From a virus (Duplodnaviria > Caudoviricetes): a DNA stretch of 56,416 nt. Below, piece by piece: positions 13,481-52,348 of the stretch. Within the stretch, counting starts at the first letter, position 1. Each line of letters starts with the position of its first letter. Below the pieces are notes generated by a model. It saw only the letters and a program-made list of their open reading frames with translations, did not search any database and was not told where the DNA came from. The translations under genes and the position numbers were made by a program. Where the stretch lies: positions 1 through 56,416 of the IMG/VR virus record IMGVR_UViG_3300021440_000005. One strand, written 5' to 3'.

Positions 13481-13948
13481 TTATGTATGTAAAAAGTCAG
13501 TCGGATCTTTAAAAAATCCTATAATATCCCTATCTTTGACAATAATTAAGCGGTGCGTCGAAGTATTTTTTTCTTGTGATCGAAGCAAATCATACACAAC
13601 AAAGTCCCCGTACGAAGCAGTCGCGCCACAACGAAAGTTTACTTTGTCAAAACACTCTTTGCCCATTTTTATTATTTTACCTGCATAAATCGTATCTTCT
13701 TTATATTTTTCTGGAGAGATAAAATCAGCATATTCATTGCGATTTAATTCAGCTAAAACAACTTCGTTAAAAGCAATTTCAAAATCTGAGTCGCAATATT
13801 CAGAAAATAATTTGTCAAGCTCCTCTTGAGATCTTTTTTTCCGGTTTTGATTTCGCCAATCAGTTTCATCAAAAAAGGGAAGAGGCTCTTCAATTCCGTT
13901 CTTACAAGATGAAGAAATTACAGGGAAATACTTAACGATTGATGCCAT
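13481..13948 (-). CDS. GroES-like co-chaperonin (paralogue 2)
   Basis: GKIIKMGKECF....F..G.....GDFVVY...LIIVKDRDIIG fits the Cpn10 fold. Confidence 0.7.
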   Translation of the reverse strand: MASIVKYFPVISSSCKNGIEEPLPFFDETDWRNQNRKKRSQEELDKLFSEYCDSDFEIAFNEVVLAELNRNEYADFISPEKYKEDTIYAGKIIKMGKECFDKVNFRCGATASYGDFVVYDLLRSQEKNTSTHRLIIVKDRDIIGFFKDPTDFLHT

Positions 13949-14487
13949 TAAGAATTCACCAATGAAAATGGATTTCCAACTAATCCCTTAATATTCACGT
14001 CCTGAACTAAACAGATTGGATTATTTTTCGTACGAATTCTTATAACATTCGAGCCATCAATCATGACGTAGTCCCCAATTGAAGCTTCTGCCCCCAGCGG
14101 GAAACGATCAGTTGAAAAACAGCCTAAACCTAGACGAATTATTTTGCCAATCGTCCAGTTTCTTGCTCCAGAAGAATCTGGGTCTTTAACATTAAGAATG
14201 CTTCCATCCCAACTTTTTACTACTGTTTGGTGTGTTGCTGAATATTCTTCCAAAACTACCCAAAACTGGGCAGGTTGGAAATACTCAGTACCGAAAGCTT
14301 CCCTCATCATCTCATTCTCTTCTTCAGTTGTGCGAAGAATACGATTTTTGTTTTGCCATGCATTCTCTTCATAAAATGGTAAAGGATGATAAACGCCTAA
14401 CTTGTGCTCTTTTTCGACTACAGGGTAGACAATATGGTTAGGTTTAGAGTCAAAAAACTCTTTAATTTTCTGAGTTCGATCCGTCAT
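13948..14487 (-). CDS. GroES-like co-chaperonin (paralogue 1)
   Basis: GKIIRLGLGCFSTDRFPLG...IGDYVM...LVQDVNIKG; shares PLPF.E..W.N.NR with its neighbour. Confidence 0.7.
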   Translation of the reverse strand: MTDRTQKIKEFFDSKPNHIVYPVVEKEHKLGVYHPLPFYEENAWQNKNRILRTTEEENEMMREAFGTEYFQPAQFWVVLEEYSATHQTVVKSWDGSILNVKDPDSSGARNWTIGKIIRLGLGCFSTDRFPLGAEASIGDYVMIDGSNVIRIRTKNNPICLVQDVNIKGLVGNPFSLVNS

Positions 14488-14749
14488 TTTCTATTGTGTC
14501 CTTATTGTTTTTTTTATTGGGTACAAAAAGCCTTGATCTGATGAAGTCTTCTAAGCCAGATTTCAAAAAGAAAATCTGACCGTATTTACCAGCAGGTTGT
14601 GAATGTATAAATTGATCTTTTTTTGCGCGTAAAGTGTGGACAGAGAAGCCAGTGTACTTTGCTGCCTCTTCGGCAGTTAGAAGAATTGGATTAAAATCGG
14701 ATTTATCAGATAAACCAACTTTTTTTTCCATCTCAGTTATATCAATCAT
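14462..14749 (-). CDS. Helix-turn-helix DNA-binding protein, excisionase-like (likely start 14749)
   Basis: LLTAEEAAKYTGFSVHTLR....GQIFFLKSGLEDFI pattern. Confidence 0.75.
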   Translation of the reverse strand: MIDITEMEKKVGLSDKSDFNPILLTAEEAAKYTGFSVHTLRAKKDQFIHSQPAGKYGQIFFLKSGLEDFIRSRLFVPNKKNNKDTIENDGSNSEN

Positions 14750-14809
14750 TTGAGACTCGAGGTTATTATTGTTATTATTGTCAGATAATAATAACAAAAA
14801 AAAATTAAA

Positions 14810-16984: not shown

Positions 16985-17013
16985 AATAAAACAAATAATA
17001 ACAATAAAGGTTA

Positions 17014-17334
17014 ATGAAAATGTCTAACCACAACAAAGTAGAATTTGCAACCAAAGAAGGTATTACTTATGAAACTTCTTTGACTGATTTCGCAAATCGT
17101 CATAATCTCACCAATGACGAATTTTTACGCGGCAGCGGTCGCACCCATCGCGCAACTGGCGGCAATGTCGAAGCTACTGGAACTATGCCAAATTGGGCTC
17201 AAGGAGAACAACAACAAGGCGCAAATACGGGGGGTAAAATTCGTTTTGAATGGAAGGGTGGTTCCAACAACAAACGTATTATTCGGAAAGATGGCGGTAC
17301 AGTCATGAAGAAAATTTTAGGCTCACTTTATTAA
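17014..17334 (+). CDS. Hypothetical protein with repeated GG-x-(V/I) motifs
   Basis: 106 aa directly after portal; TGGNV, TGGKI, DGGTV. Confidence 0.55.
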   Translation: MKMSNHNKVEFATKEGITYETSLTDFANRHNLTNDEFLRGSGRTHRATGGNVEATGTMPNWAQGEQQQGANTGGKIRFEWKGGSNNKRIIRKDGGTVMKKILGSLY

Positions 17335-17345
17335 AAAAATGTGCA

Positions 17346-17374
17346 AGGGGGGGGTAAGAACACCTCCCCTTTTT
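17346..17374 (+). terminator. Intrinsic terminator
   Basis: G-run/C-run hairpin followed by a T-run. Confidence 0.55.
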
Positions 17375-17388
17375 AAAAGGTAGAAAAA

Positions 17389-18048
17389 ATGAGCAAAGAA
17401 ACGGTAAACGTTCCAGAAGTAATAAAAGCTAAAACCCAAATAATCTCTGATATCAATAAACTTGGAATTAAAAAAGACATCACGATAAGCTATAAAGAGC
17501 GATCATTCAAGGGCAGATCGACTGAAATTATCGTTAAAAGAGTTGCGGAATTAATCGCAAAATACCATCTTTCACTTTCAAACAATATTCGTGAATTCAA
17601 GGCTGAAAACAACCGTTATTTCATTATTATGGAATATACACTGACTTCATCTTTAGATAATTCCTCCACTATGGGGATTGGATTAGGAGTAGGTGAGAAC
17701 GCAAATCCAGATCGAGCAATTCAGAATGCTTGCACCTATGCCTTCAAACATTTTCTGACTCAAACATTTTTTATAGCTGAAGGTGGAGGTGAGGAAGAAG
17801 AGGAATTAGCAGAGCCAATAGATCCTGAAGAAGAAAAGAAAGAAAAGTTCAGAGCGGCGGCAGTGAGATTACGCGATGACATGAAATCACGATTTGATCA
17901 ATCGCCTAACGATGTCGATGCAAACACAGAAATATTTCAAAGGGAATATCTCCCGAAAATTAACAACGAAGCTTTTCCTCAAGAAATTCGGGCTCAATGT
18001 TTTGCGCTGGCAAGGGCTAGAAATATTGTCACGCACACTGTCATATGA
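17389..18048 (+). CDS. ERF-family single-strand annealing protein
   Basis: G.G.....DRAIQNACTYAFKHFLTQTFFI matches the ERF signature. Confidence 0.75.
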   Translation: MSKETVNVPEVIKAKTQIISDINKLGIKKDITISYKERSFKGRSTEIIVKRVAELIAKYHLSLSNNIREFKAENNRYFIIMEYTLTSSLDNSSTMGIGLGVGENANPDRAIQNACTYAFKHFLTQTFFIAEGGGEEEEELAEPIDPEEEKKEKFRAAAVRLRDDMKSRFDQSPNDVDANTEIFQREYLPKINNEAFPQEIRAQCFALARARNIVTHTVI

Positions 18049-18251
18049 GTGAAGTTAATTATAGAAAATATCTCAAGAGGAGAATTGATGAAGAAATTAA
18101 TTCTCTCCTTGAACTATTGGTGAAAGAAAAGAAACTTGAATCCATATATGAACTTCAGGGTAAGATAGTTGGCTTAAAGCTCACTTTAGTGTTTATGGCT
18201 GAAATTGAAGAACATTTTAGAAAAATGTTTGAGCCAAATTACGAATTGTAA
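18045..18251 (+). CDS. Small conserved phage protein
   Basis: 68 aa; Y.LQGKIVGL motif; overlaps the ERF stop. Confidence 0.6.
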   Translation: MSEVNYRKYLKRRIDEEINSLLELLVKEKKLESIYELQGKIVGLKLTLVFMAEIEEHFRKMFEPNYEL

Positions 18252-18490
18252 AGTTGGATGAAATAGATAGCCCATTCTCTCCAGGCTTCTTCGGTTTTAT
18301 AGACCTTTTTATCTGGGATAGGTGCATCCCTAAATTTTGGAAGTTGAATGAGAACTTCCACCCATCCCCACCAATTCTTAACTGGATAGGCTACTGGTAT
18401 ATTATCTTCTGGGAATGCTGCAATTAACAATGCAACCCAAGTTGAAAATTCAATGCCGAACGGAAGAGCTATAGTATTGGGAATTGCCAC
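18239..18490 (-). CDS. Hypothetical virion protein
   Basis: 83 aa, Trp-rich (WREWA); coupled to the upstream tail gene. Confidence 0.6.
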   Translation of the reverse strand: MAIPNTIALPFGIEFSTWVALLIAAFPEDNIPVAYPVKNWWGWVEVLIQLPKFRDAPIPDKKVYKTEEAWREWAIYFIQLYNS

Positions 18491-20028
18491 TAAGGTTTCA
18501 CTGCTCCAAGTTGATAATTTATTTGATTTACCCCCATTTGGAAAAAGCCATTTAAACAGTTGGAACTGAATTTAAAGGATATGTATCTTCCCTGGTCAGA
18601 TAACGAAAGTTGTGTATCAGATTCCAGGAAAACTTTACTTGAAGAAACAGAGGGTTGGGACTTTGGGTAATCATAATTTAGTATTTCAATATTGAGTGGT
18701 CCAGATTGGATTATATCTATTTCCATTTTTCGAATAATCATCTCAAGGTTTATCTGTGGATTTTGTTGAAATGCATCAAACAATTTTGTCTGAAAATAGG
18801 ATTCAATCGGATATGAAAAATTATCATTTACGACGTTATACCCAACTTCGTGTGCCCATACTGCATAGGTTTGCGAACCAGAGTAAATATTTTGGTTAGA
18901 ATCTGCCATTAAAGGATAATTTAATAGTTTCTTCTTCAGTCCACATGTTCTCGCCATTATGGTATCGTACCACAGGTTTTCGTCGAGCTTATAAATCACT
19001 GCATCAGAACATTCAGTTTTATTCCCTCGGGGGTAAAAGAACCAAATTTCTTGGAAATTACCTACGTATAATCCCCATACTTTTCCTTTGTAGTTTAAGT
19101 TTATATTATCAAAGAAATAGTTATGGTTAGTTGTATTTGGGATGGGATTTGCTACTCCATTGTATAAATAGAATTGGTCGTTACCGACCCAAACGAACCC
19201 GTTTTGATGAGTTTCGACAATACTGGAAGGAGAGAGAAGAGATATTTGTGGAGCTGCTTCGCCAGAAGTAAATCCTCCTCCAGTTGTGTTTGGCACAACA
19301 TTAAACAATGTATCTATTGACCAAACCAACAATCCACCACGGAATCTTCGCGCAGCAAGAAGCTTTGAATTTGATACGGGAATGGTGTAGCAGCCTGTTC
19401 CAGTCCATACTAATGGTGATTCACCGTTATTCGAATACATGACGCCGTTATTACCAAAAGTAAAAATATACGGCACTGAAACTACGATTCCGCCTGCCGT
19501 AGTTTGATTTGCAAAGATGAACCTATCAGTAGAATTTGATGGAGCAAAATATACATTTGCAACTGTTGTTTGGGAAGGATTCTCTGAGTTAGGAGGTGCT
19601 GCAAAAATAATGACTTCCGAAGTTTCCTGGGTATCTTCTGCAAAAATTGTATACGAATCAACGCTAAATGTTAGCGATGGTGATCCAGGAGTAGGTACAA
19701 CCCAGTCGATTGGAGTTCGATCAACTTCGTTTCCAATGGAACCATTCGGTAGAAAATCAACGTGTGACACGCCAGTATCTCTAAACAAAAAAACTCGCGT
19801 AAAATCATCAATTGCAACCTGGAACATTGCTCTAACGGGATATTGGTTACCAGTAATATATTTTTCGAATCCTCCCATTTTTCTTGGCTTGGAAGCGTAA
19901 AATCGACAGTGCTGCATATCTAAATATGTTTTTCCATCTAAAGGAGGTGTATCACGATTAGAACCTGGTTCAGTCTCAAAAGCTTGGTTGATATACCCAT
20001 ATTCAAGCGAATAAACGTCTGACATCAC
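18490..20028 (-). CDS. Tail nozzle / head-closure protein (P22 gp10-like)
   Basis: 512 aa beta-propeller-like; QFYLYNG and EIWFFYP....TECSDAVIY motifs. Confidence 0.7.
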   Translation of the reverse strand: MMSDVYSLEYGYINQAFETEPGSNRDTPPLDGKTYLDMQHCRFYASKPRKMGGFEKYITGNQYPVRAMFQVAIDDFTRVFLFRDTGVSHVDFLPNGSIGNEVDRTPIDWVVPTPGSPSLTFSVDSYTIFAEDTQETSEVIIFAAPPNSENPSQTTVANVYFAPSNSTDRFIFANQTTAGGIVVSVPYIFTFGNNGVMYSNNGESPLVWTGTGCYTIPVSNSKLLAARRFRGGLLVWSIDTLFNVVPNTTGGGFTSGEAAPQISLLSPSSIVETHQNGFVWVGNDQFYLYNGVANPIPNTTNHNYFFDNINLNYKGKVWGLYVGNFQEIWFFYPRGNKTECSDAVIYKLDENLWYDTIMARTCGLKKKLLNYPLMADSNQNIYSGSQTYAVWAHEVGYNVVNDNFSYPIESYFQTKLFDAFQQNPQINLEMIIRKMEIDIIQSGPLNIEILNYDYPKSQPSVSSSKVFLESDTQLSLSDQGRYISFKFSSNCLNGFFQMGVNQINYQLGAVKP

Positions 20029-32180: not shown

Positions 32181-35100
32181 ATGAACAGTTTAGGTTTAAA
32201 AATATCATCTAATTTCGTTGCATATTCTCTAATACAAAAGGGGGAAGAGAATAAATTTCTTAGCACTGGTATACACATGTTTAAGGCTAATGAAGATCCA
32301 AAGCTTGGAGGTTCGCTTCAAATAGCCCGTTCTGGATTCAGAAGACGCCGTGCTTGGTTGAAGCGACGAATAAAGCGGTCGATTAATATTAGAAATATAT
32401 TCAAAACTTTAGGAGTTTCTACTTCTCCTAGTTCTGAAGAACTTAGAAAAGTTTGGGATTTGAGAGCAAAGGGATTGGACGAGAAACTTTCCATCCGTGA
32501 ACTTCAGATAATCATAGTTTACATGTCAAAAAAACGTGGGTATAAGTCCAACCGCCTTTCTAACTCACCAGCTAATGAAAATGGGAAGATCCTCGAAGCT
32601 ATTGCACGAACTAAAAACGAGATTAAAGAAGCTGGGGCTCGTACTTTTGGTGAGTTCCTGAAAGACAAACGTCAGAAGCGTAATCGTAAAGGCGAGTATT
32701 TGTTTTTCGCTGACAGAGAGATGATTGAAAATGAATTTGATTTGATTCTTGCTAAACAGCTTGAGTTAGGTTTAGAGGGCATAACTGAAGATCTTGTTGA
32801 GAAGATTCGTGAAGTATTGTTCTATCAAATTCCCATGAAGACTTTAGGTCACTTTGGTAAGAAATGTTACATTTACCCAGAAGAGAATGTACTTCACCGC
32901 GATACTTTTACTGCCAATATTTTTAATCTTTTGCGCAAAATTAATGACCTCAACATTTATCGATACAAACCTGAGTACGAAACCTACACACTTAACACTC
33001 GTCAGATCGGTGAGATTGTCCTCAAGGTATTTGATAAAAAAACTTTAACATATAAAGCTCTTAGAAAGATGTTAGGTCTTTCCATAGACTGGATAATTAA
33101 TATTGAAGAAGAAACTTTAGATAAATCTTTCTTTAATTTCACTTCTTTTCATGACTTATATCCCATATTCTCGAAAGTGGCATCATTTCCTTATGTTTTG
33201 GATAAGGACTCTCCTGAAGATATTTTAGATAACCCGAAAGCGATCAAATTCTATGACGAATTAATTAACTGTTTAGCCATTAACTTTGAACGAGATGAGT
33301 TACTGCATGAAGTTATTAAAGTCTTTGAAGACAATGGAGTTTCTGAATTTTTGGATCTTTATGACAAGGAAGAGGATGACGAGAAGTTTGATATTTATGA
33401 CATAGTTTCTTTAGAGAACTTCACTACTATGCATTCTCTTTCAAAGAAGGCCATGGAATTCTTTATAGAGCATTTCCAATATGGAAAAAGCTATGCAAGT
33501 ATTTTCAATGAACATTTCGCTAAAAACTCTGGTCTTGAAAAGTTGGTTAAGCTTCCACGTTTTGAAGAAACTAACAACTCTGTCATTAACCGAACTTGTG
33601 CCGAAGTACGTAAAGTTATTAACGCACTTAAGCGTGAGCATGAGATTGATGAAATTTATTTCTATTCAGTTCCTGATTTTGGATTAAACATGTCTGACAG
33701 ACGCCGATTAGCTTTCCTTGAGCGCGAACATAAGAAGGTCCGTACTTCACTGGTTGAGCTTTTGAAAGAGATTTGCATTAACGATCTTTCTGAAGAAACC
33801 ATTCAAAAGGCTGTGCTTTGGAAAGAGCAAGGTGAGCGTTGTATCTACACTGGTAAGTTTATAGCCCCAGATTTGCTAAATACTGATCAAGTTTCTATTA
33901 TTAATATTTTGCCTTATGGTGCTACTTTTGATAATAGCTCTGACAACAAGGCTCTCATTTATACTAATCATGACATTAAACGGAAGTCTAAATCCTTAGC
34001 TTTGTTAGCTAAAACAGACGAAAGGATCAATGCAGCTACATTCTTCTCTGATATTCAGAACATGTATAACGACAAGGTTTTGAGACATAAGAAGTATGAA
34101 CGATTGATGACCCTTGAGTTTGATGAAGCTGAGTTAAAACTAAAGAATCGTATGGATAACAGAGTAGTTAACCGAAGAATTATTAACCACTTCTCTTCAT
34201 ATCTTGTCCCACGCGAAAATGTCTTTTCAATTCGCAACAGTGTTGTTGATAACCTGAAAGAATATTTGTCTCTTAATCAATTAGAGTTTAAAGATTCTCG
34301 AGATAAAGTTGATTCAAAATACGAACATATCTTGGACGCAATGATTGTGAACTTCGCATCCAAAGACCTTCTTGAGAAGTCAGCTGCATATTTTGATTCA
34401 GTTGATAAGACGCAGGATTTCACTTATTCCGTGAGTTTTGTCGAGGAGTTAGAAAATGCAAAGATAAACCGTATGATTTCATGTGACGCTTCAGGTTCTT
34501 TGCATGGTAGCACGATTTACAAGCTCCCTAAGAAACTTCGTCACAAATACAAAGAAAATGAAACATTCATGTTATCAGTCAATGAATATTTGGATGAAGA
34601 GAACAGAATAATCAAACGTGTTCCACTTGAAACTATTGATAAAAAGAGCTTGAAAAATTTAGTGTGTAAGCTAGATCCAGGCAAACATTTATATTCAGAA
34701 ATCGTGAAACGTTTAGATAATGAGCCAGATCCAGAGAAGGCTTTTGTTGCCCCTATCTTCTTGAATGATAAGTTTAATCATCCAAAAAGAGTTAAAGAAG
34801 TTGAGATTTTCGTTGAAACACGTTCTGGAATTTTTAAACATCAGGGGGTTGCTGCTAACGGTGACTTCATACGTTTAGACTTGTTTAAGGACACGGATGG
34901 TAATATTTTGAGTTGTCCAATATATGCAATGGACGTTATTCGAGGTAAGCTACCTAATTTCCATATTACTGAAGATGGCTATGAACCGCTGAACTATACT
35001 CATAAGTTTTTGGCATCAATTAACAAAAACCAGAAGGTACTGTTTACGAAGACTAAGAAAGATTCGAAGATGGAAATCACTGGTTTTTTCCTGAACTACA

Positions 35101-35300
35101 ACCGTTCAAACAACGGCGTTCTGCTTACAGACATTATTGTTAAGACTTATAATCATCAGGGTGTATTGCAGGAAAAAGTAAGCATTCTTGAAAATGTCTT
35201 CTACTTGAAATCAGTTGATAATGTGCAGGTATTCCACTACGATATTCTAGAGTCTAAACACCTCATCGACTTTAAGGGTAACCAACCTCAATTCAAATAA
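32181..35300 (+). CDS. cas9: Type II-C Cas9 homologue with substituted RuvC and HNH catalytic residues (natural dCas9)
   Basis: 1039 aa. Intact Arg-rich bridge helix, WDLRAKGLDEKLS..KKRGYKSNR, N.VINR...VRKVINAL, LWKEQGERCIYTG and NG..IRLDLF....PIY motifs. RuvC-I is GLKIS (canonical GLDIG); RuvC-II is IYFYSVP (IHIELAR); HNH is SIINILP (EIDHILP); RuvC-III is YEHILDA (HHAxDA). Confidence 0.92.
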   Translation: MNSLGLKISSNFVAYSLIQKGEENKFLSTGIHMFKANEDPKLGGSLQIARSGFRRRRAWLKRRIKRSINIRNIFKTLGVSTSPSSEELRKVWDLRAKGLDEKLSIRELQIIIVYMSKKRGYKSNRLSNSPANENGKILEAIARTKNEIKEAGARTFGEFLKDKRQKRNRKGEYLFFADREMIENEFDLILAKQLELGLEGITEDLVEKIREVLFYQIPMKTLGHFGKKCYIYPEENVLHRDTFTANIFNLLRKINDLNIYRYKPEYETYTLNTRQIGEIVLKVFDKKTLTYKALRKMLGLSIDWIINIEEETLDKSFFNFTSFHDLYPIFSKVASFPYVLDKDSPEDILDNPKAIKFYDELINCLAINFERDELLHEVIKVFEDNGVSEFLDLYDKEEDDEKFDIYDIVSLENFTTMHSLSKKAMEFFIEHFQYGKSYASIFNEHFAKNSGLEKLVKLPRFEETNNSVINRTCAEVRKVINALKREHEIDEIYFYSVPDFGLNMSDRRRLAFLEREHKKVRTSLVELLKEICINDLSEETIQKAVLWKEQGERCIYTGKFIAPDLLNTDQVSIINILPYGATFDNSSDNKALIYTNHDIKRKSKSLALLAKTDERINAATFFSDIQNMYNDKVLRHKKYERLMTLEFDEAELKLKNRMDNRVVNRRIINHFSSYLVPRENVFSIRNSVVDNLKEYLSLNQLEFKDSRDKVDSKYEHILDAMIVNFASKDLLEKSAAYFDSVDKTQDFTYSVSFVEELENAKINRMISCDASGSLHGSTIYKLPKKLRHKYKENETFMLSVNEYLDEENRIIKRVPLETIDKKSLKNLVCKLDPGKHLYSEIVKRLDNEPDPEKAFVAPIFLNDKFNHPKRVKEVEIFVETRSGIFKHQGVAANGDFIRLDLFKDTDGNILSCPIYAMDVIRGKLPNFHITEDGYEPLNYTHKFLASINKNQKVLFTKTKKDSKMEITGFFLNYNRSNNGVLLTDIIVKTYNHQGVLQEKVSILENVFYLKSVDNVQVFHYDILESKHLIDFKGNQPQFK

Positions 35301-35874: not shown

Positions 35875-36967
35875 TTATTATTCCTTTTAAAATATTTCCT
35901 ATCGAGAACGCGGACGAGATATGATTTTTCGCGCGGCGCTCCTCGTTACTCATCTCATCAAGGCGCTGAGCATTTCGAATCCGATTCTGATAGTTCATTT
36001 TACGCAGGTAGTTTTTGGCTATGCAAGCGCAAAAGTTGAGGAAATGCTGATCGTTTTTGAATTCCTTATCTTTTATCTGCTGAGAAAACGTATTAATCAC
36101 ATAGTCGAAGGTTCGTTCAACTTTCGAGCAAAATGAACTGTAATTTCGTTTAGACCATGCGTTTTTAAATCTGATTTTCAAATTGTCCAGGTATTCTCGT
36201 TCGAGATGTTTATACTGCCAAGCCTTCTTCGGGGCTTGGAAAAGGTCTTTGTAGTATCGTTTCTTCTCCTCTAAGCTTTTTTTTCTCAAAACATATTTAA
36301 GAGTTTTGTTTAAATTTATAAATTTAATTAACTGTGCGACAAATTCATTTTTGTTATTCACAGCCTTGTTTTTACTTGGCTGTCGCAGCTTCATAACGTA
36401 CTTCGGAGCAAGACGGGTGATCTTAACTTTGAAGCCATTTCTTATCTCAACAGTCTGAGTTAAATATCCTTTTGTAATGAGTTTTTGGCAGTATTCAGAA
36501 ATTGTCTCTCGAGGAATGCCAATTTTCTTAGATATTTCCTGGTAAGATGGGAATTTAAGTGTCGAATAGGCTTGGTAAACGTATACCATATACAATTCCG
36601 CGACATTAATTGTCAGATCGGCTGGGATTTTAGCATTAATATAGACTCCTTGAGTTGGATTAGCGTATTTTTCTGCTAATTTTATAGCAGTATGCGCTTT
36701 TCCATTGAAAACCATAGAGATATACCCTTTTTTCTCGAGGTCATGGAGGTGTTTTTTAACCTGGCTAGTCAGTTGAGTCTTGGTTTTGCTCATATTCCAG
36801 CGTCTAGCGAGCGAAACTATAGGAATTACTCCCTGAAGTTGGATCATAGAAAGAAAAACCATGATCATTCGTTGCGTTTTAGACAGATTTTTGTCATTTA
36901 GCAAACTATTTTCAACGAATTTGAATTTTTCAGTTGACGAAGTGTTATGAAATGGTTTAGAAGTCAT
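35864..36967 (-). CDS. Winged-HTH protein, possible replication initiator
   Basis: Two HTH-like repeats (NLSKTQR...LHDLEKKGYI; FPSYQEISKKIGIPRETIS...LITKGYL); SIGNIL C-terminus. Confidence 0.6.
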   Translation of the reverse strand: MTSKPFHNTSSTEKFKFVENSLLNDKNLSKTQRMIMVFLSMIQLQGVIPIVSLARRWNMSKTKTQLTSQVKKHLHDLEKKGYISMVFNGKAHTAIKLAEKYANPTQGVYINAKIPADLTINVAELYMVYVYQAYSTLKFPSYQEISKKIGIPRETISEYCQKLITKGYLTQTVEIRNGFKVKITRLAPKYVMKLRQPSKNKAVNNKNEFVAQLIKFINLNKTLKYVLRKKSLEEKKRYYKDLFQAPKKAWQYKHLEREYLDNLKIRFKNAWSKRNYSSFCSKVERTFDYVINTFSQQIKDKEFKNDQHFLNFCACIAKNYLRKMNYQNRIRNAQRLDEMSNEERRAKNHISSAFSIGNILKGIINVQ

Positions 36968-37392
36968 GCAACAACGCCTTTCTTCTTCTGCTGCTGCTGC
37001 TTCTTGTTGTGCTTCTTGTTGTTAAGGTTCTTCTACTTGAAGTTCTTGTTGTTGAAGAAGTAAGGTTTAAAGCTTGGCGGCTAATATGTTGTAAAAAAAG
37101 ATCTTCCACCCTTAGTTTAACTACTGAGGGTTTTTTTATCTCTATATTTTGATTACAAGTATATAGCATCGATTTATTATTCTTATTTATAATATTTATA
37201 ATATTGATAAGAAAATTAACTTTTCTCATTTTTCCTGTTGACACAGGTTCGATAAATTCGTTATATTCAACTTGCATTAAGTTTTCCTCGATTCTAACCA
37301 GTCGGGGAATTTTCTTTTCCACGACCTAATTTCAAAAAAAAAGTTCAGAAATATTGTTATCAACCCAGTTTGATAAAGTCAAGGATATTAAT

Positions 37393-37989
37393 ATGCGTTA
37401 CGGATATATTTTGAGTACTAGGTTACCGAAGGATGCATTAGATCAAGAAAGAGTCTTGAAGGGGTGCGACTGTTACGAGATTTTAATTGAGTCTTTAGAG
37501 GACAATTTTTACTTACTTAGACGGTTCATTGCGAGTATGACACCAAAAGATGTTTTGATAGTATCACGAGCAAGTTCATTAGGTAACACTGCTAAGCAGA
37601 TTATCGAGCATATTACGTCACTTCTAGATAAAAATGGGCACATCATATCTATGGATGGGTTGTTAGATTCCCGCAAACCTGATTTTAAAAAGCAGCTGGA
37701 TGCTATGCTTGCTTTGGTAAACCAGATGCTGTATAGAAAGTTCGTCTATGCAAAAAAACCGAGACCTAAGAACTTAGAGCGTCTTCGTTACGCTTATAAG
37801 ACGTTAGAGCGACTTCCCATATTAATTAGAATGCTTAAAGAAGGTCAAACCTTCAATTTTATTTCATACAAGACTGGGTATGATATTAAAACCATGCAAA
37901 AACTCATCCATCATTTAAAAGAAGATGAAGATGGGTTAATGGAACTTTACAAAACTTTCTTAGCAAGGAAGAAGATGTTTAAAAGGTAA
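37393..37989 (+). CDS. Serine recombinase (resolvase)-like protein lacking the catalytic motif
   Basis: MRYGYILST in place of YARVS; DVLIVSRASSLG in place of DxLVVxKLDRL; C-terminal HTH. Confidence 0.65.
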   Translation: MRYGYILSTRLPKDALDQERVLKGCDCYEILIESLEDNFYLLRRFIASMTPKDVLIVSRASSLGNTAKQIIEHITSLLDKNGHIISMDGLLDSRKPDFKKQLDAMLALVNQMLYRKFVYAKKPRPKNLERLRYAYKTLERLPILIRMLKEGQTFNFISYKTGYDIKTMQKLIHHLKEDEDGLMELYKTFLARKKMFKR

Positions 37990-38087
37990 GAAATTCTGCA
38001 AAGTAGGATTTTCAAACTGACCCATTTTTTTACCCTCACTAGTATGATTTTCTCTTGACTGGTTTCAATTCTATGATATATTGGCGA

Positions 38088-38182
38088 AATAGTTGTTGTG
38101 TTACATCGTAAATATGTAAAAGCTAAGCCTTAGCTTAGCGAGACAGCCTGGGTGGGACTTATCCCACTTGGGTTGTTTTTTT
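38088..38182 (+). ncRNA. Small structured RNA 1 upstream of the CRISPR array
   Basis: TTGACT(38055), 16 nt, TGn-TATATT(38077) promoter; hairpins TTACAT/ATGTAA and GCTAAGC/GCTTAGC; long GC stem followed by a T-run. Confidence 0.55.
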
Positions 38183-38220
38183 CTATTGAATCCTTTTTTT
38201 CTAACAACTATACTATTTAT

Positions 38221-38293
38221 GAAACTTTTTTATTCATTCTGTTTCAATTTACGATCTCCTCAACCCCAGTTTTTCAAATTTCTGGGGTTTTTT
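38221..38293 (+). ncRNA. Small RNA 2 upstream of the CRISPR array
   Basis: TTGAAT(38186), 17 nt, TATACT(38209) promoter; AACCCCAG/CTGGGGTT hairpin plus T-run; contains repeat-like TACGATCT. Confidence 0.45.
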
Positions 38294-38325
38294 AATATCT
38301 TTGTTTAATTTTACGCTATAACGCA

Positions 38326-38757
38326 ATTATATGATCTAGAGATATCGGAAGGTAATATACCCGCCGAAGTTTATTACTGCAAACCCAACTGGTTATACAA
38401 TATAGAGATTTTAGTAGGTAATATACCTTCTAACATCCTTCATAAAGAGCTTTCACAGTTTTACGATATAGATATTTTAGTAGGTAATATACCGGGGGTC
38501 TTGGTGAAGTGAACTCAATTGCTTGTTATACGATCTAGAGATTTCAGAAGTTCAAATACCCCCTCATTAGTTATACGCGGGTCGATGAGTTATACGATCT
38601 AGAGAAAGTAGTAGGTAGTATACCCATAAAATGCGGATATATGTTACCACCTAGGTTATACAATCTAATGATTTTAGTAGGTAGTATACCTGAAGCCTTG
38701 AACTTGTCTCCGTCACTATGAGTTATACGATATAGAGATTTTGTTAAGGAGTATTCC
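38326..38757 (+). CRISPR. Degenerate type II CRISPR array: 7 x 36-bp repeats and 6 spacers of 28-31 nt
   Basis: Consensus GTTATACGATCTAGAGATTTTAGTAGGTAATATACC; repeats start at 38326, 38392, 38458, 38525, 38589, 38655 and 38722; each has 2-7 mismatches to consensus. Confidence 0.93.
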
Positions 38758-38794
38758 CTATAAATGGATCATTACTAGAGGAATTGATTATACA

Positions 38795-39391
38795 CTAAGC
38801 ATCTTGTCCAGATTTAAGTGGGTCTACGTTAATCTTAATCTCAGGGTCGTGAAGACGTTTAGGTACACCTAACGAATCCTTAATCTGAATACTCTTGTCA
38901 TGATATTCACTAGCAGCCTTCTTGGATTGATTAGATCCCCATATGCACACTCCCGATATCATGCCAAACACAACGCCTAGCATGTTAGCTAATCGTGCTT
39001 CCATGAAACCAGCTGCACCTATTGCTGACACTAACATAGATCCAAAAGTCGAAAGTGCTCCTAACACACTAGAACAAACATTAATTTTATGACAACAGCT
39101 GGCACTATCCGATAAACTCTTTTCTTCTTTTATCAGATCTTCAACTTGATTCTTCAAGTATGCGTGCCTGTCGAACAACGTCTTAGGGTCAACCGGATCA
39201 AACGAGTGCATCGACTTCGGACGGGGAGAAGAAGGAATTGTCTCGCTTGACCTTCTTGTTTCTTTACCTGGATGTTCGGGGACTAACTCTTGTGAGTCGA
39301 ATGGCTCAGCAGCTGCTAAAGAAGTAATGCATACCGATAAAATTAAAGGAGTAGTCTTCATTTGGGCCTGTATTATTATTATTCGAACCAA
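38795..39391 (-). CDS. Hypothetical exported/membrane protein (likely start 39361)
   Basis: Signal-peptide-like MKTTPLILSVCITSLAAA; two hydrophobic helices. Confidence 0.6.
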   Translation of the reverse strand: MVRIIIIQAQMKTTPLILSVCITSLAAAEPFDSQELVPEHPGKETRRSSETIPSSPRPKSMHSFDPVDPKTLFDRHAYLKNQVEDLIKEEKSLSDSASCCHKINVCSSVLGALSTFGSMLVSAIGAAGFMEARLANMLGVVFGMISGVCIWGSNQSKKAASEYHDKSIQIKDSLGVPKRLHDPEIKINVDPLKSGQDA

Positions 39392-39419
39392 TAATATTAT
39401 ACCACTAATTGAGATATTG

Positions 39420-39980
39420 TTTTCATATTTAATCCTCGTATCCTGCGTATAAAAATCGTCCCTATAGCTTCATACTAGCAGACAGAAATTTTTACCTACT
39501 GAATTATATAAATCGTAAGTTATAAACTTTATTTGAATATGCGAGTCTTACCTACTGAGTCATTGCCCCACAAGACTGCACCTTCTTAAATATTCATAGT
39601 ACTTACTAAACAATACAAAAGTTATACTTTTGTTTTACACCCCATAAGTTTTATCCCTATTCAACGATTAATCATACAAATAATGTTCATGTTGTTGTAC
39701 TGATTTATAGTCAACCCTGTAAGGTCATACAGTTCAAAAAGAATGCTCAAATTTTACAAAACAGGATTTATAGTCATACATGTAATTACTTGAGATTAAT
39801 TAAAACGACTTTTCCGTCTCTATATAGCAATAAATGTACTTTACTTGAGAATACTTTTATTAGCTATACATGTTAACTCTTTATATCCAGGTTTTAATGT
39901 TAGTATTATTGATACAATATTTAAAAGAGGTGTTTATACTCTTCATACGCTTGAAAATTAAATGAAACATTAATAGGAGA
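39420..39980 (+). repeat. Non-coding tract with dispersed, strand-polar GTYATAC mini-repeats (left)
   Basis: Exact copies at 39621, 39724 and 39773; one-mismatch copies at 39469, 39632, 39671, 39694, 39863, 39933 and 39942. Confidence 0.6.
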
Positions 39981-39986
39981 CTATAC

Positions 39987-41894
39987 ATGACTTCAAAAAA
40001 AGTAATTGGTATTGACTTAGGAACTACAAACTCGTGTGTTGCGATCATGGATGGCAGTCAGGCTAAGGTGATTGAGAACACAGAAGGACGTCGCACGACG
40101 CCATCGATTGTTGCCTTCACAGAAAGCGGCGAACGTTTAGTGGGTGATGGCGCAAAGCGTCAAGCGGTAACGAACCACGAAAATACATTCTTTGCGATTA
40201 AGCGTTTAATCGGACGTCGTTTCGAAGACGAAGCTGTGCGCAAGGATATCGATCTGGTTCCTTATAAAATTGTAAAGAGTGACAATGGTGATGCGTGGGT
40301 GAAATCTCGCGATAAGAATTACAGCCCCAGCGAAATCAGCGCATTCACATTGATCAAAATGAAAGAAACTGCTGAAAAGTTCTTGGGTGAGACGGTGTCT
40401 CAGGCTGTGATTACAGTGCCTGCGTACTTTAACGACGCTCAACGTCAAGCGACTCGGGATGCGGGTAAGATTGCAGGATTGGAAGTCTTGCGTATCGTGA
40501 ACGAGCCAACAGCTGCGGCATTAGCGTACGGCTTGGATAAAAAAGAATCTGGCGTTATCGTGGTATACGACTTGGGTGGTGGTACGTTTGACGTGTCTAT
40601 CCTTGAAGTCGGTGAAGGTGTGTTTGAAGTTAAATCCACAAATGGGGATACGTTCCTGGGTGGTGAAGACTTTGATGGGCGCATTGTTCAGTACTTAATT
40701 GATGAATTCAAAAAGGAAACAGGCGTAGATATTTCCAAGGATAAAATGGCTTTGCAACGCTTGAAAGAAGCTGCGGAAAAGGCAAAGATTGAACTGTCCA
40801 GCAGTATGCAAACTGAGGTTAACTTGCCCTTTATCACGGCTGATGCAACTGGTCCAAAGCACTTGAACATCAAGCTTTCCCGTGCGAAATATGAGACATT
40901 AGTGGATGATTTAATCCAACGCACCATGAAACCATGCGAGAAAGCTTTAAAAGATGCGGGCTTAAAAGCTTCAGATATCGACGAAGTTATCTTGGTTGGT
41001 GGTATGACACGTATGCCCAAGGTGATTGAAGAAGTTAAACGCTTCTTTAACAAAGAACCTCATCGTGGGGTGAACCCTGATGAAGTTGTGGCGATTGGTG
41101 CTGCGATTCAAGGCGGTGTGTTAACGGGTAATGTTAAAGACGTTGTGTTGTTGGATGTGACGCCATTGTCATTGGGTATCGAGACATTGGGCGGTGTGTT
41201 TACACGATTGATTGATCGCAACACAACAATTCCAACCAAGAAAAGCCAAACGTTCTCTACGGCTGAGGACAACCAAACAGCTGTGACAATTCGTGTGTTC
41301 CAAGGTGAGCGTGAAATGGCTGCGGATAACAAAATATTGGGTCAATTTGATTTGGTAGGATTGCCGGCGGCTCCACGCGGAATGCCACAAATCGAAGTTA
41401 CCTTTGATATCGATGCCAATGGTATCGTGCATGTGTCTGCAAAAGACAAGGCAACGAACAAAGAGCAGCAAATTCGCATTCAGCCCTCAGGTGGATTGAG
41501 TGATGCCGATATCGAAAAAATGGTGAAAGATGCCGAAGCCAATGCCGAAGCTGATAAAAAACGCCGTGAATTGATTGAGGCTCAAAACCAAGCGGATACG
41601 TTGTTGTATACGACTGAAAAGACGCTGAAAGAGCATGGCGATAAGATTTCTGCAGCGGACAAAGACGCCGTCGAAAAAGATCTGGCTGCGTTGAAAGAGG
41701 TTGCAAAGTCTGAGGATCTGGAGACAATCAAAGCTAAAACAGACGCGTTGATGCAGTCATCGATGAAACTGGGCGAGGCAATGTATAAGGCGGCTCAAGA
41801 GGCTCAGCCATCAGCTGAATCAGGAGAAACTTCAAAAGACGATACCGTGGTTGATGCAGAGTTTAAAGAAGTCGACGAAGACGACAAAAAATAA
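39987..41894 (+). CDS. dnaK: Chaperone DnaK (Hsp70), alphaproteobacterial type
   Basis: [24 protein letters not shown] and DLGGGTFD motifs; VVDAEF C-terminus. Confidence 0.99.
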
Positions 41895-41994
41895 GACTTA
41901 AAGTGATAAAGCTCCGTGTTCAAAAGTGGAAACTGATTGAATGCGGGGCAATTTTTAATTATGAACATATTTGAGTTTCTGTTGAGGAAGAAGA

Positions 41995-43131
41995 ATGACA
42001 TCAAAAAAAGATTATTACGAATTGATGGGAGTTGCTAAAAACATTTCACCAGAAGGGTTGAAAAAAGCGTATCGTAAGCTGGCAATGAAATACCACCCCG
42101 ATCGGAATCAGGGCGATAAAGACGCCGAAGCAAAATTTAAAGAAATTAGCGAAGCATATGAGGTATTGAGCGACGAACAAAAACGAGCAGCTTATGATCA
42201 ATATGGTCATGGTGCCTTTGATGGTAGCATGGGTGGCGACGCAAGCGGCTTCTCTAACTTTTCAAATATTTTTGAAGAGGTTTTTGGGCGAGGGTTCGGA
42301 GGAACAGGTGGGCAACGGGCTCATTCTCAAGGACAGCCGGGATCTGATTTACGATATGATGTGACCATTACCTTAGAACAAGCTCACCAAGGAATGTCTG
42401 AAAACGTATCCCTACGTAAGAGCGAAAAGTGTAGCGAATGTAATGGTTCAGGGGCTTCTAAAGGTACTAATTCTTCAACCTGTGACCAGTGTTATGGCGC
42501 GGGAACAATGCGATTCCAACAAGGTTTTTTTACTCTGGAACGTATGTGTACAAAGTGCGGTGGAGCAGGTCAAACGATAAAAGATCCCTGTAAACCCTGC
42601 GGTGGGTCTGGACGAATTCAGAAACAAAAAACAATCTCAATCACAATTCCCGTGGGTGTCGAAGATGGTACGCGTTTACGTGTTGCCGGCGAAGGTGATG
42701 CCGGAATGCGCGGTGGACAAGCGGGGGATTTATACATCTTTATTTCTGTAAAACCTCATGAATTGTTTATTCGACATGGCGACGATATTCATTGTCAGGT
42801 GCCTATTCCCATGACTACTGCCGTGCTGGGGGGTGAGGTTGAAATTCCAACAATTGATGGAACAAAAGCAAAAGTGACTATTCCTGCGGGATCACAACCA
42901 GGTGAGAAGTTAAGGCTAAAATCAAAAGGAATCAACGTAATGCGTACCACCCGACGGGGGGATATGATAGTTCATGCAATGGTCGAAATTCCCGTGAATT
43001 TAAATGCTGAACAGCAAAAACTGATGAAAGACTTTAAGGATTCAGACAAAGGTAAACCTAACGATCATCACCCAAAAACAAAAAGCTTTTTCGATAAAGT
43101 CAAAGGGTTTTGGGATAATATGAAGAAATGA
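41995..43131 (+). CDS. dnaJ: Chaperone DnaJ
   Basis: J-domain HPD, G/F-rich region, four CxxCxGxG zinc motifs. Confidence 0.99.
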
Positions 43132-43139: not shown

Positions 43140-43930
43140 TAGTCAAACAAACTGAAGTTGCATCATTAGATCATTTCTGAAAAAGAATCTTACTCTAGCA
43201 TAGTATGTTATACATTTAGTCTGCTTCTTGTTATACACTTGTTCGAATAGATGACGTACTTCTAAAAAAGACGTGTAATAGACATACCCTTTCCAGATTA
43301 GAACTTACTTGAGTAAAGGTCATATAAATATTTGACATGTAGAAATACATACAACTGGTTTCAACTTATTGCGTTATACAATTAGTCTAACTCTAATTGG
43401 TAACATAGATCTGAATTCATACAATACATTTAGTTATATTAATACACTTTGTAATAATACATATATTTTCATACAGTACCCCATTATACAGATTTTAGTT
43501 AAATAAGGACTCAAGCATGTACATTTTAATATGCCTGTTAAATTATACAGATCACTGCGGCTAACCGTCATACAAATGTAAATAAAACTCCATTATTATA
43601 TAAAAATAGTAGGAAAGATGTGTCTCAGACATACAGATTTAAGGGAAAAACCGCATGGATGCTGGCGGGATTCGGGTCTTTGGATTATACTTAAAAAAAT
43701 CCTGGGTGTGTGAGGGGGGACAAGCGCGTTACGCGCAAAGCGAGGGGGGTCAACTCGGAATTCCCAGCATGCTTCGCCTTTTCTCACCAAACCCTTTTAA
43801 CAAAAGTAATAATGTCATACGCTTAAATTTGTTTTACATATTCTTTATGATCCATCCTACACCATACCCCCTACCATTTATTCAATAATTACAGAGAGTA
43901 TCCCGATTCAAGATGAACATTATACATCCA
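43140..43930 (+). repeat. Non-coding tract with dispersed, strand-polar GTYATAC mini-repeats (right)
   Basis: Exact copies at 43207, 43230, 43373, 43567 and 43814; one-mismatch copies at 43142, 43281, 43319, 43416, 43433, 43468, 43483, 43542, 43628, 43684 and 43919. Confidence 0.65.
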
Positions 43931-50614: not shown

Positions 50615-52348
50615 TTATCTTACAGCTTGACTCGCTAATTTCAAAGCAATTTCGCGCTGAATTTCTTCATATTCGTTATCTTCGGATATCAGAACATTAG
50701 TATTCATCATCAATCCTACAATTTCGATAGCGTTTGTAATCGTTTCAATTGCTACATTGACTGGGTCGAGAACTCCGTTCTCAAATAAATTTACTTGATT
50801 ATCTTCCACGCTCTTAGTTGGATCAAGCATTTTCAAGTTATAACCCTTCCAAGTTTTCAAATCTTCAGAATTATTTTCTGGTAAACGAAGATTTTCATTG
50901 TAGTTTATGGTAATCGATTTGTACAAATCGTGCACAGTTTTTACAAATGCATTGCTAATTATGGACTTTAAAGAAGGATATTCTTCTTTTAGCTGGTTAG
51001 CTAAATAACTGAAAACGGTACATCCACCTGGAACTACGCCATGTTTTCTTGCAGATTGAACCGCACAAATTGCATCTTCAACTCGATCTTTTGTTTCTTT
51101 CGTGGACTGGGATGTTTTACCTCCAACAGAAATAATTGCTACGCCATCCGCAAGTCTCGCCAATCGTGAGCCTTGATACGCAGCTTCAGAATCTTCAGTA
51201 GTTTTGTCCATCAAGTCGCGAATTTTAGTAGATTGTTCTTTGATAATGTCAGCTCGATCTGGACTTGGCAAAATAACTGTCTTGTCCATTTTACATATAA
51301 TTCGCTTAGCTGAACCCATATGCTTGACCCTAGCTGCGTTTCTCCCTGAAAGTGGTCCTAACTCTAATGCGTTCTTATTAGAAATAACTTTGCCACCAAA
51401 CACTATTTCGAGGTCGGTGTAAATATCATTAATTTGATATTCGTCCAAACCATGAAACATTTTGTTTAAAGAAATGCAGCAGCAACGGAAGAAATTCCCG
51501 TTTTCTTTGATGTTTGTAACCAAACCTGCTTCTGCGATAAAGGAAATATCTTTTGCAATAAGAACGAATGGTCTTCCAATAATCTTTGGATCTTCAGAAG
51601 AGAAGAAGTCAGCGAAAATATGTTTAATTTGCTCCCAGGAGCGAATCTCAATATCAGTCAAAACTATAGCTGGATCGTCGAGCGAGCATTCGATTTTACC
51701 TGCTTGGTTTGAATAATATTGAGATGTCATTCCCACAGGGAGGTATACTCCCTCACTAGAAAATACGGTAGTCTCTTTGTTTTTTGATTCCTCCATAACA
51801 AAGTTTCCATCTTTCCCAAGTTTCGATAATCCTTCTGCGATAATTTTTACTATCTCCTCATCTCCATTTGAAGAGGTGTAGGCTACCTTCTTTAGGATTT
51901 CTTTATCTTCTTCGACGTCTATTTTAATCTCTTCAAGCTTATCAACCAGACGTTTCCCAATATTCTTCATTTCTGCCACTTCTTGTGTAGAGAATGGGAT
52001 AGATTCGCCGGAATTCATACCCTCGAAAGTTCTTGAATCCAGAGCGGAGTTTAAAAGATGACGAGCAAATATAATAGCCGTTGTTGTTCCGTCCCCAACT
52101 CGATCAACTGTTTTTAACGAAACTTCTTTAAGAGAATTTAAACCCATGTTCATAAAAGTGTCCCGAACATTAGTTTCACGCGCAACCGAAACACCGTCTT
52201 TAGTTGATTTAGGCAAACCCATACGTGTTTCAATCATTACGTTCGCTCCGCAAGGGCCGAACGTTGATGAAACAGTTTTGTAAAGCGTTTCCACGCCTGC
52301 TCGTAATGCTTCACGAGCTTCTGAACCGTATAAATATTTTTTAGCCAT
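50615..52348 (-). CDS. groEL: Divergent phage GroEL-like chaperonin
   Basis: TFGP.G.NV, TKDGVSVA, GDGTTTA, ETKDRVEDA..A, GVVPGG and GVLDP motifs; no GGM tail. Confidence 0.93.
   Translation of the reverse strand: MAKKYLYGSEAREALRAGVETLYKTVSSTFGPCGANVMIETRMGLPKSTKDGVSVARETNVRDTFMNMGLNSLKEVSLKTVDRVGDGTTTAIIFARHLLNSALDSRTFEGMNSGESIPFSTQEVAEMKNIGKRLVDKLEEIKIDVEEDKEILKKVAYTSSNGDEEIVKIIAEGLSKLGKDGNFVMEESKNKETTVFSSEGVYLPVGMTSQYYSNQAGKIECSLDDPAIVLTDIEIRSWEQIKHIFADFFSSEDPKIIGRPFVLIAKDISFIAEAGLVTNIKENGNFFRCCCISLNKMFHGLDEYQINDIYTDLEIVFGGKVISNKNALELGPLSGRNAARVKHMGSAKRIICKMDKTVILPSPDRADIIKEQSTKIRDLMDKTTEDSEAAYQGSRLARLADGVAIISVGGKTSQSTKETKDRVEDAICAVQSARKHGVVPGGCTVFSYLANQLKEEYPSLKSIISNAFVKTVHDLYKSITINYNENLRLPENNSEDLKTWKGYNLKMLDPTKSVEDNQVNLFENGVLDPVNVAIETITNAIEIVGLMMNTNVLISEDNEYEEIQREIALKLASQAVR

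Follow-up and report, generated by a model that had tools for sequence, protein, structure and literature searches.

Locus organisation and the Cas9 homologue

We analysed the complete virus record IMGVR_UViG_3300021440_000005 (Duplodnaviria; Caudoviricetes), a stretch of 56,416 nt (56.4 kb) that we refer to as the window (G000); it carries a 105-bp direct terminal repeat and is classed as complete in IMG/VR. The window encodes a homologue of Cas9 and, 3 kb downstream on the same strand, a CRISPR array in which degenerate repeats separate six spacers (Table 1). A first-pass annotation, made by a model from the letters of the window and a list of their open reading frames (ORFs), had drawn attention to the last of these, spacer 6, which closely resembles a stretch of a virion-module gene in the same genome. 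The origin of this spacer, and what a Cas9 with replaced catalytic residues might do with it, are the subject of this work.

Table 1. Features of the cas9-CRISPR locus and of related sites, in window coordinates unless a residue is named
Feature	Position	Strand	Remark
cas9 homologue, type II-C-like, full length	32181-35300	+	1039 aa; about 3 kb upstream of the array
RuvC motif I, canonical Asp	Lys7		replaced
RuvC motif II, canonical Glu	Tyr495		replaced
HNH, canonical Asp-His	Ile574-Asn575		replaced
HNH Asn	Asn589		kept
RuvC motif III, His and Asp	His716, Asp719		kept
Candidate A, small structured RNA, possible trans-activating CRISPR RNA (tracrRNA)	38055-38190	+	in the interval from cas9 to the array, immediately upstream of the latter
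Promoter-like site of candidate A	38055-38082	+	extended -10
Terminator hairpin of candidate A	38140-38179	+	followed by a T run
CRISPR array	38326-38757	+	seven degenerate 36-nt repeats, six spacers of 28-31 nt
Repeat starts in the array	38326, 38392, 38458, 38525, 38589, 38655, 38722	+
Spacer 3	38494-38524	+	3' 23 nt (38502-38524) identical to 15979-16001 in the phage's own portal gene
Spacer 4	38561-38588	+	only 28 nt; holds an internal truncated repeat start, GTTATACG
Spacer 6	38691-38721	+	31 nt; between repeat 6 (38655-38690) and repeat 7 (38722-38757)
Candidate B, anti-repeat-like stretch, alternative tracrRNA candidate	39486-39521	+	downstream of the array
Paired 11-nt complements of the 3' part of the repeat	39488-39498, 39548-39558		60 nt apart
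Gene of a 764-aa virion-module protein, possible ejection protein (lead)	3064-5358	-	no named family; contains the near-protospacer of spacer 6
Near-protospacer of spacer 6	3553-3583	+	27/31; inside ORF 3064-5358 (-)
Portal gene	14810-16984	+	PHROG 1216 and Pfam SU10_portal
Portal site matched by spacer 3	15971-16001	+	spacer has the same sense as the mRNA
Repeat-start-like motifs past dnaJ	43207, 43230, 43373	+	intergenic
Repeat-like unit	43373-43408	+	resembles a whole repeat
Strongest complement to the repeats in the genome	43364-43416	-	no stable fold
Chaperone genes	39987-43131, 50615-52348, 13481-13948		DnaK, DnaJ, GroEL, GroES-like

The cas9 product scores 295.8 bits against NCBIfam model TIGR01865 (cut-off 100; residues 3-993), its closest solved relatives are Cas9 chains of Neisseria meningitidis (Nme; E = 1e-55), and PADLOC calls the protein Cas9. 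The top 50 Foldseek matches of an AlphaFold model (mean predicted local distance difference test score, pLDDT, 73.5) are all Cas9, with Nme1Cas9 first (E = 1e-49). Homology to Cas9 spans the full length of the protein, and its parts follow one another in the order RuvC-REC-HNH-RuvC-PI. Within this frame, the canonical residues of RuvC motifs I and II and the Asp-His pair of HNH have been replaced, as agreed by an HMMER alignment to Nme Cas9 and by two MAFFT alignments (10 and 18 sequences). In all 18 aligned Cas9s, the bridge helix has the same arginine-rich columns (R54, R57, R62 and R66, invariant), and the motif-I Asp is kept in 13 of the 18, the exceptions being P0001, P0036, P0002, P0042 and P0052. 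By sequence, the window Cas9 would be a guide-binding scaffold without either cutting centre, the substitutions pointing to a loss of both activities.

A word-indexed search found one close homologue of this protein, P0002 (36% identity), encoded by a complete 59.9-kb phage record that we used for comparison (G001). An exhaustive HMMER search returned 2783 matches at E <= 0.001, of which the closest were P0036 (42% identity; longest contig 57.5 kb) and P0002 (37%), all others being at most 32% identical. In both of these relatives the RuvC-I Asp is replaced by Asn and the RuvC-II Glu by Ser or Thr, and the HNH pair reads Thr-His instead of Asp-His. Among the 18 aligned sequences, P0042, P0052 and P0038 are further Cas9 homologues with degenerate catalytic motifs: the four sites read N, K, Y and M in P0042, and P0052, whose longest contig is phage-sized (52.4 kb), has K at RuvC-I and a gapped HNH. 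Degenerate Cas9s may form a wider group.

The repeats of the array are not identical to one another: the first ~10 bases and the last ~6 are kept, and the middle is variable. Spacer 4 resembles two short pieces joined via its truncated repeat start. The best match of spacer 1 in the window is marginal (21/30; shuffle fraction 0.025), and none of spacers 1, 2, 4 and 5 has a convincing match in the window or in G001. Genes for Cas1 and Cas2 (PF01867, PF09827) were found in neither of the two complete genomes, G000 and G001, and the same holds for an SNF2 helicase (PF00176); positive controls were detected in both searches. A Cas13b-like array, suggested by the 36-nt repeat and 30-nt spacers, was dropped as a candidate because the 1039-aa ORF is Cas9; it is disfavoured too by the opposite senses of spacers 3 and 6 with respect to their target mRNAs.

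Spacer 6 comes from a virion gene of the phage lineage

Spacer 6 agrees with the near-protospacer at 27 of 31 positions on the same (plus) strand, and both 31-mers read as the first-pass annotation had quoted them. When 200 shuffles of spacer 6 were scored against both strands of the window with the array masked, their best matches averaged 19.3 with a maximum of 21, and 0/200 reached 27. The mismatches fall at spacer positions 7, 22, 23 and 25 (38697, 38712, 38713 and 38715 against 3559, 3574, 3575 and 3577), that is, 25, 10, 9 and 7 nt from the 3' end, which bears out the earlier statement that three of the four lie 7, 9 and 10 nt from that end. If the CRISPR RNA (crRNA) is read from the plus strand, the orientation favoured below, these three mismatches lie in the 10 nt proximal to the protospacer adjacent motif (PAM).

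The spacer is antisense to the mRNA of the gene that it resembles. Read on the reverse strand, it gives HSDGDKFKAS and the gene HSAGDKFNAS, both in frame with the ORF, as had been reported. The near-protospacer falls in a conserved protein block, NEL.YSMGH...KFN.S, and the spacer retains an open, in-frame and conservative reading, as a real allele would look. At mismatch position 7, G001 shares the base of the window genome; because the genome's base is shared with so distant a relative, the base in the spacer is the derived one. Spacer 6 is genuine and was taken from the lineage's own virion gene. Its donor is likely to have been a genome other than the present one, and the earlier suggestion of a relative or ancestor as the source gains from the derived base at position 7 and from the apparent turnover of the spacer 6 slot in sequencing run X4, described below.

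The gene itself had been called an ejection-protein gene. Its 764-aa product has 0 matches in PHROGs, Pfam and NCBIfam; by a language-model look-up it lies close to a cluster with Phage_P22_gp16 in 63% of its members (score 0.95), and the name ejection protein is a lead only. Its orthologue in G001 has 23-24% identity to it.

A partial match of spacer 3 to the portal gene

The second self-match is of a different form. The repeat-proximal 23 nt of spacer 3 are identical to the portal gene, and its 5' 8 nt are unrelated to that gene, with 6 mismatches in 8 positions; the probability that all six would fall within the first 8 nt is 3.8e-5. Perfect self-matches of this kind fit self-regulation or self-acquisition better than exclusion, unless the phage's own copy lacks a PAM. 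The idea first put forward, phage-versus-phage targeting from which the carrier's own genome escapes, would hold for spacer 6, given its seed mismatches in the favoured orientation, and fails as a general rule, since the repeat-proximal 23 nt of spacer 3 match its own genome exactly.

The 3' flank of spacer 6, CCCATAGA, stands as first quoted. The pattern that it had been said to share with the spacer 3 flank amounts to 4 of 8 positions, which is not beyond chance, and it is not kept in two further flanks inferred from one relative, the register of which is uncertain.

The module is shared with a distant relative

The window and G001 have 41 ORFs in common, which are 23-67% identical and lie in the same order. 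Their Cas9 proteins are 36% identical over 1040 aa, which argues for selection on the full-length protein. The array, cas9 and the small structured RNA (candidate A) also keep the same order in both genomes. The first-pass annotation had offered capture of the array from an immunised host as an alternative source; this is not borne out by a shared arrangement in phages that have only 23-67% protein identity. Because of this synteny and of the shared RuvC losses, the module is taken to be inherited within the phage lineage and not freshly captured; it is an old, vertically inherited part of a lineage of 52-60-kb freshwater phages.

Downstream of its cas9, G001 has a region (L010:17980-20400) in which the 9-nt repeat start occurs 43 times within ~2.4 kb. 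This array is irregular: repeat-start spacings range from 19 to 157 nt, and array spacings of 49-418 nt have also been recorded. Many units consist of a full repeat, a 30-nt spacer and then a truncated repeat, and such units look like separate small transcription units. Allowing 5 mismatches over 24 nt, none of the regular 30-nt spacers of G001 matches its own genome. A unit whose spacer is only 13 nt long (L010:18082-18094) has a 17-nt exact, repeat-proximal match in the cas9 of the same genome (L010:10316-10332), a length above the 14 nt that 0 of 860 shuffles exceeded; this unit may be a short autoregulatory guide. An ORF of the ProQ/FinO family of RNA chaperones (Pfam E = 7e-15; L010:20887-21366, minus strand) adjoins the G001 array, and no such match was seen in the window.

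Small RNA candidates and orientation of the array

Candidate A is framed by a promoter-like site and a strong terminator that would delimit an RNA of ~100 nt. Its fold is unusually stable (z = -5.96; 0/200 shuffles as stable), and its motif ATAGTTGTTGT occurs at the same place in G001. In both phages, a stretch of ~10 nt could base-pair with the conserved start of the repeat, and the geometry is the same; the pairing is not significant, as 11% of random windows pair as well. Candidate B has ~26 nt complementary to the repeats, with predicted duplexes of -10.5 to -24.5 kcal/mol with repeats 1-7, the best being with repeat 3. Its fold is not unusual (z = -0.95), and no counterpart was found in G001.

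Around candidate B, an 11-nt complement of the 3' part of the repeat occurs twice; the pair could belong to a tracrRNA or be what remains of an inverted two-repeat unit. The strongest complement to the repeats anywhere in the genome is a third tracrRNA candidate; it lacks a stable fold and is better seen as a lone repeat-like unit of the plus strand. It lies in the intergenic region past dnaJ, where three repeat-start-like motifs are found; the last of them opens the unit that resembles a whole repeat, and the surroundings of this unit are loosely like the junction of spacer 5 and repeat 6.

We favour the plus strand as the crRNA strand, because cas9 and candidate A lie on it, because the start of the repeat is the part best kept in both phages, because the matching part of spacer 3 adjoins the downstream repeat, and because the repeat begins with GTT, as other type II repeats do.

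Spacers and target genes in close relatives

Seventeen public runs, most of them freshwater, hold at least part of the target gene of spacer 6. Contigs of four runs (X1-X4) were aligned to positions 1-20000 of the window, and in each of the four runs they extend across the near-protospacer (3553-3583). Runs X1 and X2 contain near-identical genomes, and X3 and X4 contain relatives that are ~4-5% diverged. In X2, array contigs sit on both self-matches and run into repeat 7 and repeat 3, thereby reproducing spacers 6 and 3. In X4, whose relative is ~5% diverged, one contig runs past position 5546 into the reverse complement of a repeat like repeat 6, and another runs past 15627 into a repeat like repeat 5. 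The simplest reading is that the array of the X4 relative holds two other spacers, one in the spacer 6 slot against the gene at 5355-6263 and one against the portal, both read from loose ends, 30-32 letters long, of single contigs. If the repeat 6-like copy is followed by another spacer in this way, the slot turns over quickly, and turnover of spacers that all match virion genes of the lineage looks like the work of a conflict system.

The target gene of spacer 6 also varies. In the X3 and X4 relatives, diverged or different sequence takes the place of two stretches, 3945-4160 with its length unchanged and 4277-4385 with 116 other letters in its stead, which makes the gene a mosaic when close relatives are compared.

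Searches for the donor allele covered named collections, in which the diverged relatives seen in the 2025 runs did not come up. Within that scope, spacer 6 with N at its four mismatches had 0 matches in viral contigs, a codon-degenerate pattern had 0 matches in metagenome contigs, and the 3' 22 nt of spacer 2 had 0 matches in viral contigs. When 50,697 phage records were searched with the array by BLASTN, only a weak match emerged (E = 0.04), and neither megablast of positions 36000-42000 nor TBLASTN of the target protein gave any match in phage records. Protein-guided scans for relatives returned G001 only, or nothing, and the C-terminal 264 aa of the target had no match in the protein collection. 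A 19-nt core of the repeat had 6 single matches among bacteria, represented by one genome per species, which is about the number expected by chance, with no second copy at any locus; in viral contigs it had 1 single match, in a giant-virus contig. The checks that had been proposed with the first-pass annotation thus found the perfect protospacer in 0 of the viral or metagenomic contigs searched and the repeat core in bacterial genomes, one per species, at chance level, with no second copy nearby.

Proposed binding-only interference and its alternatives

We put the probability at roughly 0.4 that the locus serves binding-only, RNA-guided interference among related phages. Phages of the lineage inherit vertically a type II-C cas9 with replaced catalytic positions and no cas1 or cas2, the small structured RNA and an array whose repeats are conserved only at their ends. 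In this scheme, spacer 6 was copied from a virion gene of the lineage, most likely that of a co-circulating relative with a different allele. As the effector should not cut, the guide would direct binding only: dead Cas9, loaded with a crRNA that we presume to consist of the spacer and the 5' end of a repeat, would bind a co-infecting or superinfecting relative at the matching allele and block its transcription or replication, and the three mismatches in the PAM-proximal 10 nt would keep spacer 6 off the phage's own copy. We infer that the protein has kept its ability to bind guide and DNA; exclusion of relatives would then be the function of the module. The dead nuclease would also explain why self-matches are borne, as they would be lethal with an active one, although such matches leave room as well for a self-regulatory, protective or decoy role. 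A broader version is that dead Cas9 and its own array, refreshed continually with pieces of lineage virion genes, act by binding only and either silence co-infecting kin or shield the phage's own protospacers from host Cas9; we regard it as possible and hold it more tentatively.

Several observations weigh against interference among relatives. Spacer 3 matches its own genome exactly over the 23 nt expected to form the guide, and the G001 unit with its exact match to the cas9 of that phage is another self-match. In X4, both contigs share non-window letters at 5526, 5529 and 5532, and the X4 spacer seems to match the allele of its own carrier. That three mismatches of spacer 6 cluster in 4 nt departs only weakly from randomness (P = 0.069), and a perfect protospacer of spacer 6 was found in none of the searches. 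The comparison of flanks that had been proposed as a route to the PAM yielded none, as the four flanks, two of them in uncertain register, have only one position in common. A scan of duplex energies for the tracrRNA gave no clear winner in either phage, and the repeats are only ~61-76% identical to the reference copy (in a 49-nt register). The tracrRNAs named are candidates, and expression, guide loading and DNA binding are predicted.

Dead Cas9 and a phage tracrRNA might instead soak up the crRNAs of a host type II-C system, and crRNA-like units of the phage might soak up host Cas9 and tracrRNA, so that the host's cutting complexes would never form and spacer content would be secondary. The lineage-matching spacers would in that case stem from recombination with a host system immunised against the phage, or from acquisition in trans by such a system, and an outside acquisition route is needed if spacers turn over without cas1 and cas2. 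The seed-clustered mismatches of spacer 6 look like escape mutations, and the ~43 repeat-start motifs in 2.4 kb of G001 go beyond the needs of a guide set. A published RuvC-inactivated phage type II-C Cas9 with a tracrRNA nearby has attracted the same proposal (PMC10910872; PMC11656645). That protein, however, has an active HNH, an SNF2 partner and no array, whereas the window has lost the HNH His, lacks an SNF2 gene and has an array. No bacterial array with the repeat core was found among the genomes searched, one per species, and the repeats diverge between the two phages along with their genomes, which fits vertical descent better than the tracking of a host repeat. We judge an anti-CRISPR decoy to be unlikely. 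A use of the host machinery of the opposite kind, in which the array is an orphan mini-array and the host's active Cas9 cuts competing relatives with the phage's own dead Cas9 irrelevant, has a precedent in virus-borne mini-arrays that use host Cas against related viruses (PMC11656645), and the seed mismatches of spacer 6 would protect the carrier's DNA. Here the 23-nt self-match of spacer 3 would be suicidal unless its flank is not a PAM, the same one-genome-per-species search found no host array with a matching repeat, and the co-inherited cas9 would be left unexplained; we consider it very improbable.

The self-matches can also be taken at face value, as natural CRISPR interference (CRISPRi) in which dead Cas9 represses the phage's own genes: guides of the spacer 3 type would tune the expression of late genes or of cas9, and spacer 6 would be a former or weakened guide. 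The perfect 23-nt, repeat-proximal portal match next to 8 unrelated nt and the 17-nt match of the G001 unit to its own cas9 both point this way, and the latter presumably resembles short-guide autoregulation by a long-form tracrRNA or scaRNA. The targets, however, lie inside coding regions and not in promoters, and spacer 3 pairs with the template strand, a weak orientation for a nuclease-dead Cas9 (dCas9) to block elongation. Nuclease-dead, phage-borne RNA-guided repressors do exist in the TldR family (PMC10705468), yet a fixed circuit would hardly have spacers that seem to differ at ~5% divergence and of which none is common with G001, nor a guide with three seed mismatches, as in spacer 6. 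Such self-regulation strikes us as distinctly unlikely. Much of the degeneracy of the locus could be the drift of a once-active phage CRISPR-Cas9 that lost its nuclease and its adaptation genes, with spacer 6 coming from an ancestor or from the phage itself and its mismatches reflecting neutral decay. Degenerate repeats, the composite spacer 4 with its truncated repeat start, the irregular G001 array, the lost catalytic residues and the derived base at position 7, as if the spacer itself had mutated, would all be in keeping with this. Decay does not readily explain why three lineages all keep cas9 as an intact ORF (1039-1054 aa), with 36-42% identity, about the core-gene median of these phages, why the ends of the repeats are kept and their middles vary in both phages, why the mismatches of spacer 3 are placed so far from randomly, or why spacers seem to turn over between close relatives. 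A decaying relic is, in our estimate, improbable.

Comparison with known systems

Like the window protein, the phage Cas9 of Altae-Tran et al. (2023; 'biomimicry anti-CRISPR'; PMC10910872) is phage-encoded and type II-C-like, has inactivated RuvC motifs, lacks adaptation genes and has a putative tracrRNA nearby. With its active HNH, SNF2 partner and no array, it has been proposed to be an anti-CRISPR decoy, a proposal repeated in a review in which the protein is called Cas9c (PMC11656645). The window differs in that its HNH pair is Ile-Asn (Thr-His in its two relatives), in that it lacks an SNF2 gene, and in that it has an array whose spacers match the lineage. The window protein and the published one may still belong to the same family.

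Type II systems are found in huge phages too, most of them lacking Cas1 and Cas2; their arrays are short, and some of the spacers are directed against structural genes that belong to other phages (Al-Shayeb et al., 2020; PMC7162821). The window locus is like them in being a phage-borne class 2 system, which in that study almost always lacks Cas1, Cas2 and Cas4; the arrays described there have a median of six repeats, 2-3 spacer mismatches were tolerated in the analysis, and one effector, with a catalytic residue missing, was suggested to repress without cleaving (PMC7162821). Those phages exceed 200 kb and most of their effectors keep their catalytic residues (PMC7162821), whereas the present genome has 56 kb and three catalytic positions of Cas9 are replaced across both nuclease sites; the matches of the window spacers are to the carrier's own genome and lineage. 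The mini-arrays of SPV1 and SPV2 likewise have spacers against close kin and have been proposed to exclude co-infecting relatives (PMC11656645). They hold one or two spacers, have repeats identical to those of the host and rely on host Cas (PMC11656645), in contrast to the six spacers, degenerate repeats with no host match found and own effector of the window. Mini-array spacers are expected to match relatives and not the carrier; spacer 6 is 4/31 off the carrier's own copy, and spacer 3 matches it over 23 nt.

The proposed mechanism, in which a natural nuclease-dead RNA-guided DNA binder on a mobile element blocks transcription, has parallels in Cas12m (type V-M), which interferes by binding only (PMC11656645), and in TldR proteins, nuclease-dead relatives of TnpB, some of them phage-borne, that act as RNA-guided repressors (PMC10705468). 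Cas12m and TldR belong to other protein families, Cas12 and TnpB, which have RuvC only. Viral single-guide RNAs (vsgRNAs) that redirect host Cas9 have been described in a preprint (10.64898/2026.06.01.729453). As with these, and with the long-form tracrRNA (tracr-L) and scaRNA, where short or partial guides lead to Cas9 binding without cutting, the 13-nt unit of G001 offers a point of comparison; the difference is that there an active host Cas9 is directed to its own promoter (10.64898/2026.06.01.729453), and here a dead, phage-encoded protein would be directed to targets inside ORFs.

In the literature searched, we found no description of a natural Cas9 with both nuclease sites degenerate and an array of its own. 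Engineered dCas9 was devised by humans; among natural effectors, action by binding only is so far known from relatives of Cas12 and TnpB. Here, a family of 56-kb phages keeps a Cas9 in which both nuclease sites are degenerate, together with guides from its own lineage; if the interpretation is right, it would be the first dCas9 from nature to come with an array of its own, and self-matching spacers would follow a new logic. Provided that the protein still binds, cleavage-free conflict or regulation among phages would be testable on a small complete genome, as would the gain of spacers without Cas1 and Cas2 and the tolerance of perfect self-matches, and the window phage might supply a compact natural dCas9 scaffold.

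Other genes of the window

Family searches identified among the products of the window a terminase, an SU10-like portal with its adaptor and tail-fibre proteins, as well as a protein with a GH108 lysozyme domain, ERF and SSB. The GH108 lysin and the ProQ/FinO gene of G001 hint at a host among the Proteobacteria. The phage encodes a full set of chaperones; its DnaK is 65% identical to bacterial DnaK, and its DnaJ has all three domains. Two small serine recombinases are encoded as well. Contigs of X2 and X3 join position 2429 to 14762/14763, with letters in between, at what are the ends of a 12.3-kb minus-strand virion block; the joint could reflect an inversion or another arrangement, and the two recombinases lie in the same genome.

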